A stretch of DNA of 32,919 bases from IMG/VR virus record IMGVR_UViG_2778261314_000004. The stretch is one strand, 5' to 3'. This document shows, piece by piece, positions 1 to 11,175 of this stretch. This stretch comes from a virus (taxonomy: Duplodnaviria > Heunggongvirae > Uroviricota > Caudoviricetes). The notes beneath the pieces were generated by a model that saw only the letters and a program-made list of their open reading frames with translations, had not been told where the DNA came from and did no database searches. Made by a program: the position numbers and the translations under genes. The first letter of the stretch is position 1, and each line of letters starts with the position of its first letter.

Positions 1-1053
1 TTACGGGGTAATGCCAACCGCTGCCGCCACTTTGTCGCCACTTGGCAGCGTTGCCAGAGGATTGAAACGGAGCGCCGTTTCCAGATGATCCGGTGCTAGA
101 TGTGCGTAACGCATCGTCATTTTTATATCGTGGTGTCCGAGAATTTTTTGTAAGGCCAGAATGTTTCCACCCGACATCATGAAGTGCGCCGCAAACGTAT
201 GGCGCAGAACGTGTGTGAGTTGACCGCGAGGGAGCACGATAGACGTTTTTTCCATCACGGATAAAAATTGAAAATAGCAGTCTGTGAAGAAATTGAACCC
301 ATCAAGCGCCATGATCTCTTCGTAAAGCTCTTTACTGATAGGGATGCTTCTGTTTTTCTTCCCTTTCGTTCTGACAAAGGTAATTCGGTATTTGGTCACC
401 TGTGAGCGGGTAAGATTTACGGCTTCACGCCAGCGTGCGCCTGTGCTTAAGCATATCTTAACTACCAGTGCCAGAATTGGGTCCTGACGTTTGCAATCAG
501 CCAGCAATTCAACAATCTGCTCATGGGTAAGCCATGCCATCTCTTTTTCTGCGATGGTGAATTTTCGCATGTTCTCCAGTGGGTTCGGATACGACCATTC
601 GCCCAGACGGGATAGTTCGCTAAAAACACTACTTAGATAGCTTTGCTCCAGGTTAATGGTGACCGGGCTGGCTCCTTTCTTCCATTTCTCGCTGAAGTAG
701 ATCTCACCTGTCAGTCGTTTATCTCGATAATGGGCAAACATTTTAGATGTGAGATCGGTTGCAAGGGGATTGCCCAGAGCGTCAACCATCAGCAGCAATT
801 TGTCATAGACATGCTGCCCAGCAGTCAGAGATTTACCATGTAGTTTGAACCATAGTTCAACCACGTCTTTCAGTGTTCGACGATCCACTGATTCACCCAG
901 CCAGGGCTTTGCTTCGGTTTCTTCCATCGTGTGGCGCTCAAAAGCCAGAGCTTCGCCTTTGGTGGCGAATTGTTTACGCACACGACGCCCACTGCGTCCG
1001 GCGGGGTAACATTCGCAAAGCCATTTTCCTGTGGTGAGTTTTCGTACTGCCAT
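1..1053 (-). CDS. int: Tyrosine integrase (P2/186-family), 350 aa
   Basis: Full minus-strand ORF whose stop codon is the first triplet of the window. C-terminal region has tyrosine-recombinase signature residues (LSTGARWREA; HVLRHTFAAH...RYAHL). Sits at the prophage end next to the repressor operon. Confidence 0.9.
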   Translation of the reverse strand: MAVRKLTTGKWLCECYPAGRSGRRVRKQFATKGEALAFERHTMEETEAKPWLGESVDRRTLKDVVELWFKLHGKSLTAGQHVYDKLLLMVDALGNPLATDLTSKMFAHYRDKRLTGEIYFSEKWKKGASPVTINLEQSYLSSVFSELSRLGEWSYPNPLENMRKFTIAEKEMAWLTHEQIVELLADCKRQDPILALVVKICLSTGARWREAVNLTRSQVTKYRITFVRTKGKKNRSIPISKELYEEIMALDGFNFFTDCYFQFLSVMEKTSIVLPRGQLTHVLRHTFAAHFMMSGGNILALQKILGHHDIKMTMRYAHLAPDHLETALRFNPLATLPSGDKVAAAVGITP

Positions 1054-1131
1054 AAAAAATGCCCTCCAGTGGAGAGCATTTTTACTGTATGTATAACCAG
1101 TGTCAATGTATGATGCTTGAGGTTACATACA

Positions 1132-1515
1132 TCATAAGTACCGATATGATTGCGGGGCCGTTATGTTATCACCTAATGAACTTAGATGAAGCGGTTGATC
1201 ATAGATTTTTAGATTGCCAATTTCTATAGCAAAGGCTTTTTCTTTGCTATGAAAATATGAGTCAAAAAATTGTTTGCTGATACCTGCGTATTGGCTTGTT
1301 TTTTCCCATACAATACTTGGCTTGTCTTCTATAACATCTGCAATGTCAAATTCAGCAACAACTTTACCGACAGGCATTGTTGAATAAATAACCACAGATT
1401 TTACATCCGGTTTTTTGAAAATTCCTTTTCGGAATTCAAATTTCTTTGTTCCATTAAGGATTTTTTCTACATGCTCTGGGTTAATTGACAATAATACTTT
1501 CATTGACGCCACCAA
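1132..1515 (-). CDS. Standalone ASCH-domain (PUA-like fold) protein, ~123-127 aa; alternative start at 1503
   Basis: Translation MKVLLSINPEHVEKILNGTKKFEFRKG...VVIYSTMPVGKVVAEFDIADV...AFAIEIGNLKIYDQP follows the pattern I recall for ASCH family proteins. AT-rich codon usage. Overlaps the upstream gene by 23-35 nt. Confidence 0.7.
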   Translation of the reverse strand: MVASMKVLLSINPEHVEKILNGTKKFEFRKGIFKKPDVKSVVIYSTMPVGKVVAEFDIADVIEDKPSIVWEKTSQYAGISKQFFDSYFHSKEKAFAIEIGNLKIYDQPLHLSSLGDNITAPQSYRYL

Positions 1516-2551
1516 GTTTAATAATGCTATTAAACTGTTCGTTTGTTAACTTCATGATCCCCCAGTAAGCTCGCGGGGATAATCCTACTTCAGAAATAAG
1601 TTTAGCACGATTTAGTCTTTTGGGCAAAGCAAGGTTATATGTAAAGCTTATAATATATGGGTATTTTTTTGTTCTATAAAAACTTTTAAGCTCAGATTCT
1701 GTAAAAACAGAATATCTAGAACAGTAATTTAGAAATTCTTTCTCTGTAACGAAAGAGTTTATATTTCTAACTTTTTCTACTACACATAAAGAAGTAGCAA
1801 CAGAACGGTAATATGCAGGCCCTTGATTATCGGATGTTCGGTATATAACGATTATATCGTTTGGCTTCATTAATTCAACATCTGACATGCCACAAATATA
1901 TACTTTTCTAATGCTATTTGCATATGATACATCAGCAACAACATCTGGTGACTCTGTAATTAATTTTGAGTCAGGGAATAAACGAGTATGAAATACGGGG
2001 TATATTGAAAGCAAGAATTTATTTTCACTGCCTCTGTTATTAATAAATGGATAATCTGACAGTATATCGCCCGTAAGAGCATTACTATTCATTTCTTTTA
2101 TTAGTACTCGCTCTACACCATTTTCAGATTCTTTTACTCCAATATCTATAAAGCCATAGATTTTGAATAGTCTAATTAAGTAGTCATGTTTTTCAAAAAC
2201 AGTCACATATATATTGTTAGCATTATTATCTAGAGCGTGATCGAATATTTTTTTTAAAAATCGTTGACCACGAAGAGTTCCTTTTGGATTAAATTTAAAT
2301 GTTCCAACTTTTAGATGAATACCATCAGGAATATTTGGTTTTGTATCTTCAATGATACCTACTTCTGTTTTTAGATACAAAAAACCATCAATTTTATTTT
2401 GTTCATCATAAAGGACATATGCATAATCATTTGATTTACATTTAGAATGGAACCAATCAATAAACCCATGAGCATAATCGGATTTTAAAGAGTCAAAAAA
2501 AACATCAGAAAAATCTACTTGATTAAAAGGTATGTATTTTAAGTTTTCCAT
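1481..2551 (-). CDS. Two-domain protein: N-terminal GNAT-like acetyltransferase fold (degenerate), C-terminal ASCH/PUA-like domain, 356 aa
   Basis: Long ORF in the AT-rich island. N-terminal half has GNAT-like secondary-structure rhythm (HLKVGTFKFNPKGTLRGQRFLKKIFDHALDNNANNIYVTVFE...LFKIYGFIDIG). C-terminal half resembles the ASCH pattern (IIVIYRTSD...SLCVVEKVRNI...FTESELKSFY...YIISFTYNLALPKRL). Start codon lies 2 nt after the stop of the upstream gene. Domain calls are by eye only. Confidence 0.55.
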   Translation of the reverse strand: MENLKYIPFNQVDFSDVFFDSLKSDYAHGFIDWFHSKCKSNDYAYVLYDEQNKIDGFLYLKTEVGIIEDTKPNIPDGIHLKVGTFKFNPKGTLRGQRFLKKIFDHALDNNANNIYVTVFEKHDYLIRLFKIYGFIDIGVKESENGVERVLIKEMNSNALTGDILSDYPFINNRGSENKFLLSIYPVFHTRLFPDSKLITESPDVVADVSYANSIRKVYICGMSDVELMKPNDIIVIYRTSDNQGPAYYRSVATSLCVVEKVRNINSFVTEKEFLNYCSRYSVFTESELKSFYRTKKYPYIISFTYNLALPKRLNRAKLISEVGLSPRAYWGIMKLTNEQFNSIIKLGGVNESIIVN

Positions 2552-2553
2552 GT

Positions 2554-3336
2554 TTACAATCCTATTTTAAAATCACATGATAAGCAAATTGATTTAGTTT
2601 TAGATATGACGGCGAGTGTTTTCCCCGGAGTTTGACAATTAGTACAAACATTCCAATTTTTCGGTTTTCCATCAATCTTATATATGTTGGCTAAAATATC
2701 ATCTAAAGGAAAAAATGTTTTCATCATGTCTATAATGCTTGCTGCATAGTTTTTCTTTGCCTCGACTAATTTTTGTTCAGGCATGTTTTTATCATTTATC
2801 AAGCAATGAACCAGGTTATTAAGAGGCTCTTGATATATCTCCTCTCGAAAAATTAGAAATGCACTTAAAAAGTCTTTACGTATTTCTTTATTATTACTTT
2901 TACCTAAGTGAATTACTTTATTTCTTTCTTTGCGCAAAATATCATAAATTTCATTAAAGCGCGGTGAAAGATTTCGCCCACTGATACTTTGTGCTATTCT
3001 ATGTAGCTCGGTTGCGTCTAATGTTGAACATTCGAAAAATGATTTGTTTTTATAGCAGTCTTTTACTTCTTTTAAAAGTAAATAAACACTATGCTCAGCA
3101 ATTATAGACTTTAGATATATTTCAGCAGAATTAAAGAGTATTACTAAGCCAGATTGAAAGAAACTCTCTTTTTCGGATATTAAGCGTTTCAGTCGTTGTT
3201 CTTCTGTTTCAGGTTGAGCTGGGGCTTGCAATAACTCAATGTCAGAATAAAAGTGTAAGTAGAATGTTTTAATGAAAAACTCAAGGTTCCTTTTGGCATA
3301 AAGAAGCATCTCTTCATTGTTAGGAAGGTCTGTCAT
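2554..3336 (-). CDS. HEPN-like protein (R-N-x3-H motif) with C-terminal CxxC...CxxC zinc ribbon, 260 aa
   Basis: ORF start ATG directly abuts the cI stop codon (TAA-ATG at 3334-3339) with AAGGA Shine-Dalgarno inside the cI 3' end. Contains LRKERNKVIHLG, matching the Rx4-6H HEPN catalytic motif. C-terminus has CTNCQ...CLSCDF. AT-rich. Confidence 0.5.
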   Translation of the reverse strand: MTDLPNNEEMLLYAKRNLEFFIKTFYLHFYSDIELLQAPAQPETEEQRLKRLISEKESFFQSGLVILFNSAEIYLKSIIAEHSVYLLLKEVKDCYKNKSFFECSTLDATELHRIAQSISGRNLSPRFNEIYDILRKERNKVIHLGKSNNKEIRKDFLSAFLIFREEIYQEPLNNLVHCLINDKNMPEQKLVEAKKNYAASIIDMMKTFFPLDDILANIYKIDGKPKNWNVCTNCQTPGKTLAVISKTKSICLSCDFKIGL

Positions 3337-4293
3337 TTAAATATCCTTATATATACCAAAACATTTTGCTATTACATTAATATCCGCTAATAGACATTCA
3401 AAAGTTGTACTTTCATTAGATACTTTTACTTTTGCAATTGGAATTCTGGTTAGATCTCTAACACTAAATTTTCCTTCGATTTCAACTAACCATTTTCCAT
3501 CGGTTACTTCATCAAATGCTTTGTCTGCAAGATATACATTTCCTTCATCTACTATAGATATGGGGTTTTTCACCTTGCTGGGTAACATGGTTTTATCAAA
3601 AGGGAGATAATTTGTATCAAACAACATACCATTTATAACTTTTTTCCGTGTGATAGCAATAATATCGCTCTTAGCGTCTTCAAAGACGGGACCATTACCG
3701 GTTGTTAGCCACATTAATGAAGCTCCGGTTTCAAGTGCGCACTGGATGATCCAATCAGCTGGAAAGGTATCTCTCATGTAACGATTGGCTAATGTGCTTT
3801 TTGAAACACCAATGTGATCCGCTAGAGCTTGCCTTGTCTTAAATCCATAGGCGATAACTATTCGCTCGATTGCCGCTTTTCCTCCTTGATTAACCTCAAT
3901 GAGGCTCTCGTTCTTTCGGTGAGTATTGTTCTCATTTGGGGATTTTGTGTCTAAAGTGAGAGAATGAATCTCCTTACCATCTTTATGGTGGTTCTGTTCT
4001 GTATTATGTGTGACAGCCTCTACTGTGTTATCGGTACCAAATGCCAACCATTCAACCGACACGCCAGTTTCCATGCTGCAGATTATGACCCAGTCGGCAG
4101 GGAAGGTATCACGAGCATATCTGTTCGCCATTGTGCTTTGGGATATCCCTAAGTGGTTACAGAATGCTTGACGTGAAGTGAAGCCATAAGCTTTCAAAAT
4201 TCGGTCAATGACCTGTTGCCCTCCACGATTCTGCATGATTACAGTTTTCATTGCATCATCAACATGGCGAAATGTGATTTTGTGTGTTGACAT
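3337..4293 (-). CDS. cI: 186-type CI immunity repressor with tandemly duplicated N-terminal HTH domain, 318 aa
   Basis: Two successive copies of an HTH module (RILKAYGFTSRQAFCNHLGISQSTMANRYARDTFPADWVIICSMETGVSVEWLAFG and RIVIAYGFKTRQALADHIGVSKSTLANRYMRDTFPADWIIQCALETGASLMWLTTG) followed by a C-terminal domain. Lies divergent from an apl/cII pair, as in phage 186. Confidence 0.8.
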   Translation of the reverse strand: MSTHKITFRHVDDAMKTVIMQNRGGQQVIDRILKAYGFTSRQAFCNHLGISQSTMANRYARDTFPADWVIICSMETGVSVEWLAFGTDNTVEAVTHNTEQNHHKDGKEIHSLTLDTKSPNENNTHRKNESLIEVNQGGKAAIERIVIAYGFKTRQALADHIGVSKSTLANRYMRDTFPADWIIQCALETGASLMWLTTGNGPVFEDAKSDIIAITRKKVINGMLFDTNYLPFDKTMLPSKVKNPISIVDEGNVYLADKAFDEVTDGKWLVEIEGKFSVRDLTRIPIAKVKVSNESTTFECLLADINVIAKCFGIYKDI

Positions 4294-4381
4294 ATCCGTT
4301 TTGCGATCCTATTCTCCGATTTGTGAAGTTGAAGTCACGATTAAAACCTGCTTATCACAAGACAATAGGAGATGTTGCATC
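4294..4381. promoter_or_regulatory. Lysis-lysogeny switch region (expected pR/pL promoters and operators) between divergent cI and apl
   Basis: 88-bp intergenic region between the divergent repressor and apl starts. Contains a short direct repeat tgaagttgaagt and AT-rich promoter-like hexamers. Individual promoters were not resolved. Confidence 0.4.
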
Positions 4382-4635: not shown

Positions 4636-5145
4636 ATGTTTGATTACCAAGTTTCCAAACATCCACATTTTGATGAAGCCTGTCGTGCATTCGCATTGCG
4701 CCACAACCTAGTGCAACTGGCAGAACGTGCTGGCATGAATGTGCAGATTCTGCGGAACAAGCTGAACCCAGCTCAACCTCATTTATTAACCGCACCAGAA
4801 ATCTGGCTGCTTACCGATCTGACTGAAGATTCAACGCTGGTAGATGGTTTTCTGGCTCAGATTCACTGCCTGCCATGCGTACCGATTAATGAGGTGGCAA
4901 AAGAGAAACTGCCACATTACGTCATGAGTGCAACCGCAGAGATCGGGCGTGTTGCTGCAGGTGCGGTATCTGGCGATGTAAAAACCAGTGCAGGTCGTCG
5001 TGATGCTATCAGCAGCATTAACTCTGTAACACGACTGATGGCGTTGGCTGCTGTTTCATTGCAGGCCCGTTTACAGGCTAACCCTGCGATGGCGAGTGCA
5101 GTTGATACCGTGACTGGCCTCGGTGCTTCATTCGGTTTGCTGTGA
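4636..5145 (+). CDS. cII: CII-like lysogeny establishment regulator (phage 186 CII family), 169 aa
   Basis: Translation from the internal ATG ([45 protein letters not shown]...) matches my recollection of 186 CII in sequence and length. Position after apl. Confidence 0.8.
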
Positions 5146-6436: not shown

Positions 6437-7290
6437 GCACCATCCTGAAATGGGCGGGAAATAAAACCGCCATTATGGCAGAACTGAAAAAATACCTTCC
6501 TGCTGGCCCGCGACTGGTTGAACCTTTCGCGGGTTCCTGTGCAGTGATGATGGAGACGGATTACCCCAGCTATCTGGTTGCGGATATTAATCCTGATTTA
6601 ATCAACCTCTATAAAAAGGTTGCCGCTGATTGTGAATCGTTTATATCTCGCGCCAGAGTTTTATTTGAGAACGCAAACAGGGAGATGGCTTATTACAACA
6701 TAAGGCAGGAGTTTAATTACTCAACTGAAATTACTGATTTCATGAAAGCGGTATATTTCCTGTATCTCAATCGTCACGGTTACCGTGGTTTATGTCGCTA
6801 TAACAAGAGCGGGTATTTCAACATTCCCTACGGTAATTATAAAAATCCGTATTTCCCTGAAAAAGAAATTCGCGCATTTGCAGAGAAAGCCCAGCGGGCA
6901 ACGTTTATCTGCGCGAGCTTTGATGAAACGCTGGCGATGCTGCAGGTGGGGGATGTGGTGTATTGCGATCCGCCGTATGACGGTACGTTTTCCGGCTATC
7001 ACACTGATGGTTTCACTGAAGATGACCAGTATCACCTGGCATCCATTCTTGAACATCGGTCATCAGAAGGACATCCGGTCATTGTTTCTAACAATGACAC
7101 ATCCCTGATTCGTTCGCTGTATCGCAATTTTACTCACCACTATATCAAGGCAAAACGCAGCATCGGCGTGTCAGCTGGCGAGGGTAAATCTGCAACAGAA
7201 ATCATTGCTGTTTCCGGGCCGAGCTGCTGGTTGGGATTTGATCCTTCGCGTGGCGTGGATAGTTCTGCCGTGTACGGAGTGTGTGTATGA
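6433..7290 (+). CDS. dam: DNA adenine methyltransferase (Dam-like, N6-adenine), ~285 aa
   Basis: Start at internal ATG with GGAGG Shine-Dalgarno. N-terminal ILKWAGNK...EPFAGSCAV (SAM-binding) and catalytic DPPY motif ([10 protein letters not shown]). Confidence 0.9.
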
Positions 7291-9701
7291 GTCATGACGA
7301 TATGAACAATTGCAGCGGCTTTAACGAGGCCGCCGCAGCATTTTCATGGAACGGCTCGAAAAAGGCCATTAACCCTTATCTGGACCCGGCGGAAGTTGCG
7401 CCGGAGTCTGCACTTTCAAACCTGATCACTCTGTACGCTGCCGATAACGAGCAGGAACAACTGCGCCGCGAGGCACTGAGTGAGCAGGTCTGGGAGCGTT
7501 ATTTCTTTAATGAATCCCGTGATCCTGTCCAGCGCGAAATGGAGCAGGATAAGCTCATTAGCCGGGCAAAGCTGGCGCATGAGCAGCAGCGTTTTAATCC
7601 GGACATGGTCATTCTGGCGGACGTAAACGCCCAGCCTTCCCATATCAGCAAGCCGCTGATGCAACGTATTGAATACTTCAGCAGCCTGGGCAGGCCAAAG
7701 GCTTATTCCCGCTATTTGCGTGAGACGATTAAGCCATGTCTGGAGCGACTGGATTGTGTACGTGACAGTCAGCTATCTGTTTCTTTCCGTTTTATGGCAA
7801 GCCATCAAGGGCTGGAGGGGCTGCTGATCCTGCCTGAAATGAGCCAGGATCAGGTGAAACGCCTGTCCACCCTGGTAGCAGCGCATATGAGCATGTGTCT
7901 TGAGGACGCTTGTGGTGATTTGTATGCCACCGATGACGTTAAGCCAGAAGAAATCCGCAAGACATGGGAAAAGGTGGCAGCGGAAACCCTGCGTCTGGAT
8001 GTTATCCCGCCTGCGTTTGAGAAACTTCGTCGGAAAAGAAACCGCCGCAAACCAGTGCCCTATGAACTCATCCCGGGTTCGCTGGCGCGTATGTTGTGTG
8101 CCGACTGGTGGTATCGGAAATTATGGAAGATGCGTTGCGAATGGCGGGAAGAGCAGTTGCGTGCTGTCTGCCTGGTCAGCAAAAAAGCATCCCCCTATGT
8201 CAGCTATGAAGCCGTGATGCATAAACGTGAGCAGCGCCGTAAGTCGCTGGAGTTTTTTCGTTCTCATGAACTGGTGAACGAAGACGGCGACACGCTGGAT
8301 ATGGAAGATGTGGTAAACGCCAGCAGCAGCAACCCGGCGCATCGCCGCAATGAGATGATGGCCTGTGTTAAAGGTCTGGAGCTTATCGCGGAAATGCGCG
8401 GTGACTGCGCCGTTTTCTACACCATTACCTGTCCGTCACGTTTCCATTCCACGCTCAATAACGGCAGACCCAACCCGACCTGGAAAAACGCGACGGTAAG
8501 ACAAAGCAGCGATTATCTGGTCGGTATGTTTGCTGCATTTCGTAAGGCGATGCACAAAGCCGGGTTGCGCTGGTATGGCGTGCGGGTGGCTGAGCCGCAT
8601 CACGACGGCACAGTTCACTGGCACCTGTTGTGTTTCATGCGCAAAAAAGACCGCCGCGCCATTACTGCATTGTTGCGTAAGTTTGCTATCCGTGAAGACC
8701 GCGAGGAGCTGGGCAATAACACGGGGCCGCGCTTTAAGTCTGAGCTGATTAACCCGCGCAAAGGAACGCCGACAAGCTACATAGCGAAATACATCAGTAA
8801 GAACATTGACGGGCGTGGTCTGGCTGGCGAGATCAGCAAGGAAACGGGTAAATCTCTTCGTGATAACGCTGAATACGTGAATGCCTGGGCGTCTTTGCAT
8901 CGTGTTCAGCAATTCCGCTTCTTTGGTATTCCGGGGCGTCAGGCTTACCGTGAACTGCGATTGCTGGCTGGTCAGGCGGCAAGGCAGCAGGGTGACAAAA
9001 AAGCAGGTGTGCCGGTACTGGATAACCCGCGCCTTGATGCCATTCTGGCTGCTGCTGATGCTGGTTGTTTTGCCACCTATATCATGAAGCAGGGAGGTGT
9101 ACTGGTTCCCCGTAAATATCACCTCATCAGAACTGCTTATGAAATTAACGAAGAGCCGACCGCCTATGGCGATCACGGTATTCGTATTTATGGCATCTGG
9201 TCACCCATTGCAGAGGGCAAGATCTGCACTCATGCAGTGAAGTGGAAAATGGTTCGTAAGGCCGTTGACGTTCAGGAGGCGGCAGCCGACCAGGGCGCTT
9301 GCGCCCCTTGGACTCGTGGCAATAACTGTCCCCTTGCTGAAAATTTGAACCAACAGGAGAAAGATAAATCAGCTGATGGGGACCCCAGAACGGACATTAC
9401 CAGCATGGATGACAAGGAGTTGCACGATTACCTGCACAGTATGAGCAAAAAAGAGCGCCGGGAACTGGCAGCAAGGTTACGCCTGGTGAAACCGAAACGG
9501 CGTAAAGACTACAAACAGCGAATTACAGACCATCAGCGACTGCAGCTCGTGTATGAGCTGAAGTCCAGAGGATTTGATGGCAGCGAGAAAGAGGTCGATT
9601 TACTCCTTCGCGGAGGCAGTATTCCGTCAGGAGCAGGCCTGCGTATCTTCTATCGGAACCAGCGTTTGCAGGAAGATGATCAGTGGCGGAACCTGTATTA
9701 A
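7287..9701 (+). CDS. A: Replication initiation protein (P2 gpA / 186 RepA family rolling-circle HUH endonuclease), ~804 aa
   Basis: ATG overlaps the dam stop (ATGA). Large protein with HUH-type motif ([11 protein letters not shown]) and expected size and position for gpA. Confidence 0.9.
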
Positions 9702-9795
9702 TTACGCGGGTTAACAATTCGTGCTCTTAATAATACCAGGCATATCAGGCTGATGAACGTAAAAAAACGTTTTACATCAGTAAGATTATTATATA

Positions 9796-9811
9796 CTGTA
9801 AATATAAACAG
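9796..9811 (+). promoter_or_regulatory. LexA box (SOS operator) CTGTAAATATAAACAG overlapping a sigma70-like promoter
   Basis: Perfect CTGT-N8-ACAG palindrome with AT-rich spacer. TTTACA (-35-like, 9771-9776) and TATACT (-10-like, 9792-9797) are adjacent. Lies upstream of the 62-aa ORF and the dinI-like gene. Confidence 0.6.
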
Positions 9812-9854
9812 TGGTTATACATACAGTATTGCGTGTGGTGTCATAGGAGGAAAG

Positions 9855-10043
9855 ATGCAGGACTATTTTTTGGAGTCTTTGAAGCTCCAGCGCATTGATT
9901 TTTTTCTTAAGCTTGTAGCGGCTAGTGAGTGTAGTGATGAAGAGAAGGGGCTGGCTCTGCAGTGGGTTTCTGAATTGACTGATGAACTCATGGCAAAAAT
10001 CAGAACCCACGAATACAACCGCTCAATGGATGTCATCAGCTGA
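9855..10043 (+). CDS. Hypothetical 62-aa protein, first gene of the LexA-box-controlled operon (candidate antirepressor/SOS effector)
   Basis: ATG at 9855 preceded by GGAGG. AT-rich. Immediately downstream of the LexA box. Confidence 0.5.
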   Translation: MQDYFLESLKLQRIDFFLKLVAASECSDEEKGLALQWVSELTDELMAKIRTHEYNRSMDVIS

Positions 10044-10053
10044 GGTGACTTTT

Positions 10054-10287
10054 ATGCGCATTGAAATAATGATCGATAAAGAGCAGAAGATTAGCCAGTC
10101 TACCCTGGACGCCCTTGAATCCGAGCTTTACCGCAATCTGCGCCCCCTGTATCCCAAAACGGTAATTCGCATTCGCAAAGGTAGCTCTAACGGTGTGGAA
10201 CTAACCGGACTGCAACTGGACGAAGAAAGAAAACAAGTGATGAAAATTATGCAGAAGGTGTGGGAAGACGACAGCTGGCTGCATTAA
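10054..10287 (+). CDS. dinI: DinI-like protein (DNA-damage-inducible protein I family), 77 aa
   Basis: MRIEIMIDKEQKIS...LDALESELYRNL...KIMQKVWEDDSW follows the DinI pattern (MRIEV...DAL..EL.R...E.W..W) and length. Confidence 0.8.
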   Translation: MRIEIMIDKEQKISQSTLDALESELYRNLRPLYPKTVIRIRKGSSNGVELTGLQLDEERKQVMKIMQKVWEDDSWLH

Positions 10288-10422
10288 GAAACGTTGCTGG
10301 CGTCTGAACTTGCTTCTGGCGTCAGCAAGGTTGAACAACGAGCCCTTGCGAGGCGTTAACTCTGTAGTGCATGTCTATGCCGCATGAGATCGCATGATCG
10401 TTTGAGGATCGTTTTTGCTAAG

Positions 10423-10447
10423 GCCCGCCAGAACTGGCGGGCTTTTG
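10423..10447 (+). terminator. Rho-independent terminator downstream of the dinI-like operon
   Basis: GC-rich inverted repeat gcccgccag..ctggcgggc followed by TTTTG. Confidence 0.5.
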
Positions 10448-10491
10448 CGTAGATTATGCAGGTGCATGAAAACCACTACATAAAGCGGGCA

Positions 10492-10510
10492 GGCGTGGCG
10501 GGGATACGAG
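10492..10510. other. cos: Candidate cos site (cohesive-end sequence)
   Basis: ggcgtggcggggatacgag: the first 13 nt match the 19-nt cohesive end I recall for phage 186 (GGCGTGGCGGGGAAAGCAT; P2 is GGCGAGGCGGGGAAAGCAC). Lies in a non-coding stretch between the early region and the Q side. Based on recollection only. Confidence 0.4.
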
Positions 10511-10599
10511 CGCGCGCTGATGGGGGGCGCAGTGCTTTTGGCATAGTTATGAGGTAGAATTTCAAAATACTTTTTAGCGCTGTTGGAGGTATAGACAAA

Positions 10600-11145
10600 A
10601 TGGACGTTATAACTGGAGTTGCAGAGTTTTTTCGAAAAGTACCTGCAGCATTTCTTGTGGCTATTACATGTGTTTTAGGTCTTATACTTTTTCTGCCAGA
10701 CTCTTTGGCAGTAAAAGTGGCTGTTGATGGCTTTCGTAATGAGTATAGGATTTTTATTGGACCTGCATTTTTACTGTCTGTATCTTATTTAGTTGCAAGA
10801 GTCTATCTCTCTTTCTATGACTTACTTGGTGAAAGGCAGGCTAAGAAGGTACGCACTTCCTACCTTGAGAAGCTAACAGCAGAAGAAAAAGGATATTTAA
10901 AGTCTTATATTACCGAAGGTGTTAATTCACTTATGTGTGGGCCTGAGGATGGGGTCATGGGGGGACTTGTGGCTAAGGGGATTACTTATAGAGCCACCAG
11001 TGTTGGGGATATGATCTACGGTTTTGCTTTCAACTTACAGCCATGGGCGCGTGAACATTTAGAGAAAAATAGTCATTTATTAGATGGGGCTATTGGGCGT
11101 GCAATGACTCCAAGAGAAAAATTAAACTTTAGATTGGGACGCTAA
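10600..11145 (+). CDS. Membrane protein, 181 aa, with N-terminal transmembrane segments; possible superinfection-exclusion (SieB-like) cargo protein
   Basis: Hydrophobic stretches AAFLVAITCVLGLILFL and GPAFLLSVSYLVARVYL. Lower G+C than flanking phage genes. Located between the cos-like site and Q, where P2-like phages carry accessory genes. Family assignment is tentative. Confidence 0.45.
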   Translation: MDVITGVAEFFRKVPAAFLVAITCVLGLILFLPDSLAVKVAVDGFRNEYRIFIGPAFLLSVSYLVARVYLSFYDLLGERQAKKVRTSYLEKLTAEEKGYLKSYITEGVNSLMCGPEDGVMGGLVAKGITYRATSVGDMIYGFAFNLQPWAREHLEKNSHLLDGAIGRAMTPREKLNFRLGR

Positions 11146-11175
11146 CCAGTCACACATTACCAATGTGTGACTGGT
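11146..11175. terminator. Hairpin between convergent genes (possible bidirectional terminator)
   Basis: Inverted repeat ccagtcacacatt-acca-atgtgtgactgg followed by a T-rich run, between the membrane-protein gene (+) and Q (-). Confidence 0.4.

Follow-up and report, generated by a model that had tools for sequence, protein, structure and literature searches.

How does an SOS signal reach the lytic switch of a prophage whose repressor carries no recognisable self-cleavage domain? The question is raised by a 32,919-nt stretch of viral DNA (IMG/VR record IMGVR_UViG_2778261314_000004; the whole stretch is referred to below as the window), which is a 186-like (Peduoviridae) prophage of E. coli. The 186-type CI/Apl/CII switch is present. 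Its CI protein is matched twice by the Pfam model Phage_CI_repr and also by Phage_CI_C, and is 36% identical to 186 CI. The same Pfam search found no self-cleaving peptidase domain in this CI, and SOS induction would therefore need an antirepressor, as in 186. The genes that surround the locus are arranged as follows.

1-1053, minus strand: int
1132-3336, minus strand: three cargo ORFs
3337-4293, minus strand: 186-type CI repressor, 318 aa, with a duplicated N-terminal HTH; putative target of TumA
plus strand: Apl/Cox-like ORF
4636-5145, plus strand: 186-type CII
plus strand: Dam-type methylase
7281-9701, plus strand: repA (replication protein A)
10600-11145: SieB-like gene, beyond the operon terminator
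after the SieB-like gene, minus strand: portal and terminase

The original prediction, made from the letters of the DNA, placed a LexA-controlled small ORF and a DinI homologue at the position where 186 carries its SOS antirepressor gene tum. This position holds, as the module lies directly after repA just as p95-tum lies after gene A in 186. The region is also AT-rich relative to repA, as had been noted, with a GC content of 0.36-0.43 over 9600-10100 compared with 0.51-0.555 in repA. We conclude that the region is very probably an SOS-induction operon, in which a LexA-repressed promoter drives the expression of TumA, an antirepressor of CI, and of TumB, a DinI-like protein.

The SOS promoter and the limits of the operon

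The elements of the operon, all on the plus strand, are listed below.

9771-9776, plus strand: -35 hexamer TTTACA of the SOS promoter, counterpart of 186 p95
9794-9799, plus strand: probable -10 hexamer TACTGT, at the left edge of LexA box 1 and 17 nt after the -35
9794-9813, plus strand: LexA box 1 (distal), TACTGTAAATATAAACAGTG, 17/20 to the consensus
9809-9828, plus strand: LexA box 2 (proximal), CAGTGGTTATACATACAGTA, overlapping box 1
9845-9850, plus strand: Shine-Dalgarno sequence AGGAGG of tumA, its GGAGG kept in relatives
9855-10043, plus strand: tumA-like gene, 62 aa, antirepressor half of Tum by homology (phrog_698, E=3.6e-38)
10041-10048, plus strand: TGAGGTGA, in which the tumA stop overlaps the Shine-Dalgarno sequence of tumB
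10054-10287, plus strand: tumB/DinI-like gene, 77 aa (PF06183, phrog_189)
10420-10447, plus strand: intrinsic terminator with a GC-rich stem, a 4-nt loop and a TTTT tail, ending the operon

The promoter had been proposed to consist of a TTTACA/TATACT pair. Both hexamers are present (9771-9776 and 9792-9797), but with a spacer of only 15 nt, and a strict sigma-70 consensus scan called no promoter in the region. In the annotation of 186 p95, the LexA site begins with the -10 hexamer TACTGT. By analogy with p95, TTTACA followed 17 nt later by TACTGT is probably a better reading of the promoter than the TATACT pair. With either hexamer, TACTGT or TATACT, the LexA box overlaps the likely -10, 15-17 nt past TTTACA. 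The TTTACA hexamer and its spacing to the LexA box are kept in DuoHS, SopEPhi and Klebsiella phi13.6, and the flanks of the SopEPhi and Klebsiella sequences have diverged.

The exact CTGT-N8-ACAG SOS box that had been reported at 9796-9811, CTGTAAATATAAACAG, was recovered and is the sole occurrence of this pattern in the 32.9-kb window. The pattern is not rare by itself, since 0.51 occurrences are expected and 40 of 100 shuffled sequences contained at least one. The description of the LexA box as perfect is accurate for this 16-nt core and not for the full 20-mer, in which TACTGTAAATATAAACAGTG (9794-9813) differs from the consensus TACTGTATATATATACAGTA at three positions; none of 100 shuffles equalled its agreement with the consensus. 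In a weight-matrix (PWM) scan of the window, performed with a matrix derived from a set of LexA sites, box 1 ranked as the second-best site. The same type of scan gave box 2 a weak score when it was taken alone, its left half-site being GTG and not the canonical CTG. Heterology-index-style scores built on the same sites did not reproduce the published HI values and were therefore used for ranking alone.

The 16-nt cores of box 1 and box 2 overlap by one base and have a central CAGTGG in common. A single copy of the combined motif, CTG-N10-CAGTGG-N9-CAG, is found in the window against an expectation of 0.01. ColE1 likewise contains a single copy, located in the operator upstream of its colicin gene cea; this operator is identical to that of the window at 26 of 31 positions, shows the same one-base overlap of the cores and also has a GTG left half-site in its proximal box. 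By this pattern of bases, the boxes at 9794-9828 are a ColE1-type double SOS operator. The cea gene belongs to a plasmid toxin operon with an unrelated genetic context, and the likeness is one of operator design only. In colicin operons, an overlapping double box binds two LexA dimers, resulting in very tight repression (PMC2994835), and both boxes of the window would likewise be occupied by LexA. The double box is kept in DuoHS, SopEPhi and Klebsiella phi13.6, whereas phages 186 and PSP3 and the ESSI-2-type phages have a single box.

Downstream of the operator, the tumA start codon (ATG at 9855) has the sequence AGGAGG in front of it, at 9845-9850, in agreement with the strong GGAGG ribosome-binding site of the original prediction. 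The gap between tumA and tumB is 10 nt, and relatives have a gap of 10-11 nt with a purine-rich Shine-Dalgarno sequence; the short distance suggests that translation of the two genes is coupled. A hairpin at 10032-10049, which covers the tumA stop and the tumB Shine-Dalgarno sequence, was considered as a regulatory element and dropped because it is not conserved in relatives. The terminator at 10420-10447 appears in the MFE fold of 10285-10460 as well as in the centroid fold; it had been missed by a terminator scan because its T-tail has four Ts, and was found by RNA folding. About 70 nt past the terminator, near 10517-10520, the phage-conserved block ends and variable cargo begins. An Rfam scan of 9600-10700 found no RNA family. 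Neither the second LexA box nor the operon terminator was part of the original prediction.

TumA, TumB and their relatives

The 62-aa ORF that follows the LexA box (ORF62, 9855-10043) had been suggested as the antirepressor, and this assignment gains support from its homology to the N-terminal part of Tum and from its near-identity to the tum gene of the prophage DuoHS. A pairwise BLASTP comparison of ORF62 with 186 Tum gave no alignment, and the homology is visible to a profile only. As can be seen with an HMM made from 31 clean members of the ORF62 family, residues 6-48 of 186 Tum are matched with 35.8 bits, compared with at most 7.3 bits for 2000 shuffles of the Tum N-terminus. Since this score is far above those of the shuffles, the 62-aa protein is a homologue of the non-DinI half of Tum. 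The motif common to the ORF62 family and Tum is approximately (Q/E)R(I/V)-x-h-h-x-(R/K)L-x-A-x3-C-x3-(D/E)(K/R)-x-(L/I)A(L/I)-x-(W/L)-h-(S/A)E(L/I).

Pfam and NCBIfam hold no model for ORF62, and PHROGs places it in phrog_698, of 'unknown function'. A HMMER search of 1.84 billion representative proteins returned 66 short relatives of ORF62 and no Tum-length fusions among them. The AlphaFold (AF2) model of ORF62 is a two-helix hairpin with a pLDDT of 87. A Foldseek search of BFVD with this model gave no match at E <= 0.001, a profile search of PDB sequences with ORF62 returned nothing, and the predicted fold adds nothing to the identification. In RefSeq the protein is a 'hypothetical protein'; it could safely be named a TumA-like antirepressor.

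The genetic evidence comes from the E. coli HS prophage DuoHS. In the HS genome, its tum gene (ECHS_RS04495) is annotated as a 62-aa 'hypothetical protein' and lies between the replication endonuclease and the DinI-like gene ECHS_RS04500. The DuoHS product is identical to ORF62 at 61 of 62 residues (98%), the promoter and both LexA boxes are identical to those of the window base for base, and the position after repA and the two-gene layout are the same. The two prophages differ in CI, which has 189 aa and one HTH in DuoHS compared with 318 aa and two in the window, and in the flanking cargo on both sides. Induction of DuoHS by mitomycin C is abolished by deletion of tum or in a lexA(Ind-) background (PMC12055606), as both MMC-induced lysis and virion foci were lost in the Δtum and lexA(Ind-) derivatives (Phollow paper, PMC12055606). 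The deletion was in-frame, with the start and stop codons fused, and an SOS reporter still fired in the Δtum strain (PMC12055606). That induction needs tum and a cleavable LexA is thus taken from the literature on a 98%-identical allele with an identical operator, and by analogy with the DuoHS gene the TumA-like protein would be required for SOS induction of the present prophage.

PSP3, Fels-2 and SopEPhi also have a split tum, in which a small gene precedes a DinI-like one; as in the window, the pair follows the replication gene and has a LexA box in front of it. The PSP3 record describes tumA as 'similar to 5' end 186 tum; UV induction of prophage' and tumB as 'similar to dinI and 3' end of 186 tum'. 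The upstream gene of the split tum of Fels-2 and PSP3 was reported as the antirepressor (Lemire 2011, PMC3121763); as far as that account goes, its statement on split tum rests on Bunny 2002 and a personal communication, and the PSP3 assignment is second-hand. A literature search for TumA and TumB of PSP3 by name found only unrelated papers. The small ORF of SopEPhi is 88.7% identical to ORF62. PSP3 TumA scored 4.2 bits with the ORF62 HMM, which is under the shuffle maximum, and PSP3 further differs from the window in having a single LexA box and in the reading frames of tumA and tumB, which are in one frame with one stop between them in PSP3 and in different frames in the window.

In 186 itself, a LexA-repressed promoter follows gene A and has its -10 within the LexA site, as is proposed for the window. 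Tum of 186 consists of both halves fused into a protein of 146 aa, expressed from behind a single LexA box; its N-terminal half is homologous to TumA by HMM, and its C-terminal half is 41% identical to TumB. The DinI part of 186 Tum is also made separately from internal start codons, including an internal GTG. The two operons differ at their ends, as orf97 follows tum in the p95-tum-orf97 operon of 186, whereas in the window a terminator is followed by the SieB-like gene.

Small SOS-induced proteins that bind and inactivate non-cleavable repressors have been described in other systems, namely GfoA and GftA of the Gifsy phages and AntC of N15 (PMC3121763). The genes of these antirepressors often lie beside a homologue of dinI, and their products can affect other prophages in trans; in Gifsy the gene order is reversed, with dinI first, and the repressor belongs to another family (PMC3121763). 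We found no sequence relationship between TumA and GfoA, GftA or AntC.

The DinI homologue expected downstream of the small ORF is encoded at 10054-10287. PF06183 matches TumB over its full 63-position profile (81.3 bits, E=6.6e-23; cutoff 24.2), and PHROGs places the protein in phrog_189, 'RecA filament binding protein DinI'. TumB is 78% identical to PSP3 TumB and 41% identical to residues 71-145 of 186 Tum. It was rejected as a copy of the host dinI, as it scored 42.7 bits against the NCBIfam chromosomal-DinI equivalog NF007893, under the cutoff of 111, and it is a phage DinI-like paralogue instead. E. coli DinI binds RecA filaments and modulates co-protease activity. In the 186 record, the DinI-only Tum products are annotated with 'modulates SOS induction' and the full-length protein as a CI inhibitor. 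We consider that TumB probably tunes the RecA filament, and hence the strength or duration of the SOS signal.

The module is widespread. Matches to the 951-bp module region are present in 1281 of 5426 complete E. coli genomes (about a quarter) and in 60 phage records, which come from Klebsiella, Escherichia, Salmonella, Yersinia and Erwinia. Conservation was assessed in 33 species-representative genomes from ~15 enterobacterial genera, in which related loci were found by the ORF62 protein. A CTG-N10-CAG pattern is present at most 110 nt upstream of the tumA-like start in 31 of the 33 loci, compared with 4.2% of 1635 background windows taken from the same loci; one of the two loci without an upstream LexA box is cut by a contig end. 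The double box is present in 17 of the 33 loci. The repA gene lies directly upstream of the tumA-like gene in 29 loci, and a DinI-like gene directly downstream in only 20, leaving 13 with tumA and no dinI. ESSI-2-type phages also have a LexA-controlled tumA-like gene without dinI. From the 13 loci that lack dinI it follows that the small protein can stand alone, and the retention of SOS control by tumA even without DinI argues for tumA, and not DinI, as the core effector.

The CI repressor and the proposed route to induction

Compared to the CI proteins of DuoHS and 186 (189-192 aa), the window CI is long, at 318 aa, and its HTH is duplicated. Overall it shares 47% identity with DuoHS CI, whose single HTH is similar to each of the two copies (59% and ~78% identical). 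Among six phages whose TumA proteins are 98-100% identical, the proximal HTH of CI is 65-95% identical and the C-terminal domain 26-44% identical. The CI HTH of 186 is 38-45% identical to those of the six phages, and the N-terminal half of 186 Tum is highly diverged. As the HTH is kept and the C-terminal domain divergent, with 186 set apart in its HTH and its Tum, the type of TumA tracks the DNA-binding domain of CI. Such tracking would fit an antirepressor that blocks operator binding, and suggests that TumA could act across prophages with differing CI C-terminal domains. In this prophage, CI is the putative target of TumA, which is predicted to bind its N-terminal domain, with the sensitivity of CI to TumA being assumed. 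According to PMC7708051, Tum inhibits CI by sequestering it. In the accounts that cite the original work, direct binding of CI is attributed to full-length 186 Tum only (Shearwin 1998, cited in PMC3121763 and PMC7708051), and by extension TumA of this phage would contact CI directly.

The features of the sequence, both homologies, the conserved synteny and the conserved LexA boxes are direct observations, and the following route to induction is proposed on the basis of these and of the related systems. In the lysogen, two LexA dimers would be bound to the overlapping boxes at 9794-9828, covering the -10 and the transcription start. Upon DNA damage, RecA would become active, LexA would cleave itself and the promoter would fire. 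The transcript would encode TumA (62 aa) and TumB (77 aa) and end at the terminator near 10447. TumA would then bind the 186-type CI stoichiometrically and reversibly, such that operator binding by CI is stopped, and sequestration of CI would turn on the lytic promoter pR. TumB would probably tune the RecA filament in the meantime.

Alternatively, TumB could be the effector of induction, with the Δtum phenotype resulting from lost translational coupling or from polarity on tumB. The two genes are 10 nt apart and the tumA stop overlaps the next Shine-Dalgarno sequence, such that a deletion of tumA could lower the translation of tumB, and in 186 both parts belong to one polypeptide. However, a LexA-controlled tumA-like gene is kept without dinI in 13 of the 33 loci and in ESSI-2-type phages, the DuoHS deletion was in-frame (PMC12055606), the 186 record assigns inhibition of CI to the full-length protein and a modulatory role to the DinI-only products, and the upstream gene of PSP3 was reported as the antirepressor (PMC3121763). 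TumB as the effector is therefore most improbable. A different target for TumA is also very unlikely, albeit with some observations in its favour: the operon would be SOS-controlled as proposed, and TumA would act on LexA, RecA, CII, Apl or the host and not on CI. CI binding is on record for full-length 186 Tum and not for a 62-aa TumA, and the same TumA allele is found with CI proteins that are 43-63% identical to the window CI, which would be unusual for a specific inhibitor. Against this stand the homology of TumA to the N-terminal half of Tum, a protein that inhibits DNA binding by CI, and the CI HTH, which is 65-95% identical among the TumA-sharing phages and 38-45% identical to that of 186. 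In addition, the SOS reporter was normal in Δtum DuoHS, indicating that the SOS response itself does not depend on TumA.

A third possibility, which we consider unlikely, is that the module is intact yet ineffective, because a CI with two HTHs escapes or titrates TumA, leaving the prophage poorly inducible or not inducible by the SOS response. The 318-aa CI with its duplicated Phage_CI_repr is indeed unlike the 189-192 aa CI of DuoHS and 186, and Salmonella BTP5 expresses tum, yet no infectious phage was detected. The resemblance of both HTH copies to the DuoHS HTH (59% and ~78%) speaks against an escape from TumA, as does the operon, which is without decay. Furthermore, the duplicated-CI type recurs in Klebsiella phages with a 100%-identical tumA, which argues for continued selection. 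We thus favour the reading in which TumA, released from LexA repression, inactivates CI.

A possible prophage SOS regulon

A conserved single LexA box is located in the int promoter, at 1083-1102. This raises the possibility, which we put forward tentatively and regard as rather doubtful at present, of a prophage SOS regulon that combines a tight, late tumA-tumB promoter, an SOS-controlled int, cross-induction by TumA and a CI HTH duplication that raises the threshold. If this is the case, the double operator would keep the tumA-tumB promoter tightly repressed and let it fire late, as is seen with colicins, and, after Apl has silenced the cI-int transcript, the integrase needed for excision would come from the single-box int promoter. 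The near-invariant TumA would recognise the conserved CI HTH and may thereby also induce other 186-like prophages of the same cell, in spite of differences in the C-terminal domain of their CI and perhaps in immunity. The duplicated HTH of CI could in turn raise the amount of TumA needed for induction. In a narrow search of the literature, Bunny 2002 excepted, we did not find this reading stated.

The operon itself is a real but ordinary finding and is already known, since a near-identical copy has been characterised genetically. Induction through Tum has been established for 186, PSP3 and Fels-2, and by genetic means for DuoHS. The locus represents a very common type of E. coli prophage in which a split Tum links induction to the SOS response, and as such offers little new biology. 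The SOS box of int, the double operator, the duplication of the CI HTH and the pairing of one TumA allele with many CI types are modest leads on induction thresholds and on cross-talk.

A LexA box at int and the genes beyond it

A LexA scan of the whole window, using a matrix derived from LexA sites, ranked highest a site at the integrase gene, within the spacer of the int promoter. The elements of this region are:

1083-1102, minus strand: second strong LexA box (CACTGGTTATACATACAGTA), directly upstream of int
1109-1104, minus strand: perfect TTGACA, the -35 element of the int promoter
1053, minus strand: ATG start codon of int

The core of the int box (CTGG-N8-ACAG) and the TTGA are kept in DuoHS, an E. 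coli HS prophage, as well as in Kp4860-7, KP12 and 813R9, with diverged flanks. Since a strong LexA box lies in the promoter and its core is conserved together with the TTGA, the sequence suggests that the int promoter is under SOS control. Phage 186 has no counterpart of this promoter region, because its cI and int genes abut.

In the window, the interval between int and cI holds cargo, of which the part at 1132-2551 (minus strand) matches the candidate defence system PDC-M11:

within 1132-2551, minus strand: 356-aa protein, PDC-M11A match (E=2.4e-130)
within 1132-2551, minus strand: 127-aa ASCH-domain protein, PDC-M11B match (E=4.9e-48)
2554-3336: third cargo ORF, 260 aa, no match beyond weak ones to DUF3644 and HEC-08

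The region downstream of tumB

Two features follow the DinI-like gene tumB:

10290-10332, plus strand: strong 11-bp hairpin (GCUGGCGUCUG...CUGGCGUCAGC) without a T-tail
10600-11145, plus strand: SieB-family superinfection-exclusion protein, 181 aa (PF14163, E=4.5e-25)

The hairpin lies directly 3' of the tumB stop codon and 5' of the real terminator. Taken as a whole, 10285-10460 folds better than shuffled sequences (z = -3.3), and an Rfam search gave no match here. The hairpin may serve to stabilise the transcript or to direct its processing.

The SieB-like gene is situated past the tum operon terminator and is followed by a bidirectional-looking hairpin at 11145-11175; searches of PADLOC and PHROGs with its 181-aa product returned no match in either. 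It fills a variable cargo slot with the tum operon on one side and the portal gene on the other, and in other relatives the same slot holds different genes, such as one for an HNH endonuclease or others encoding hypothetical proteins.

Divergence of TumA, TumB and CI

PSP3, a Salmonella phage, is the named member of the family in which tumA and tumB are split. Compared with the window gene at 9855-10043, its tumA (PSP3 record 4135-4317) encodes a protein far more distant from the window TumA than is the N-terminus of 186 Tum: the same TumA-family HMM scored the two at 4.2 and 35.8 bits, respectively. PSP3 TumB is 78% identical to the DinI-like protein of the window. On these sequence comparisons, the tumA and tumB halves of the operon differ in evolutionary history.

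The repressor differs in architecture from that of 186:

3337-4293, minus strand: CI repressor, 318 aa, two tandem Phage_CI_repr HTH domains, then one Phage_CI_C

Both HTH copies (about residues 28-86 and 140-203) are N-terminal to Phage_CI_C, whereas the CI proteins of 186 and DuoHS, at 189-192 aa, have a single HTH. The same duplication is found in full-length CI relatives from the Klebsiella phages ST11-OXA245phi3.1 (63% identical) and Kp4860-7 (52%).

Among the phage records compared, those with 98-100% identical TumA carry CI proteins only 43-63% identical to the window CI. By domain, CI identity among phages with near-identical TumA is 65-95% in the HTH but 26-44% in the C-terminal domain. 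This pairing of a near-constant TumA with a conserved HTH and a divergent C-terminal domain suggests that the HTH domain of CI would be the target of TumA, and that TumA could cross-induce other 186-like prophages.
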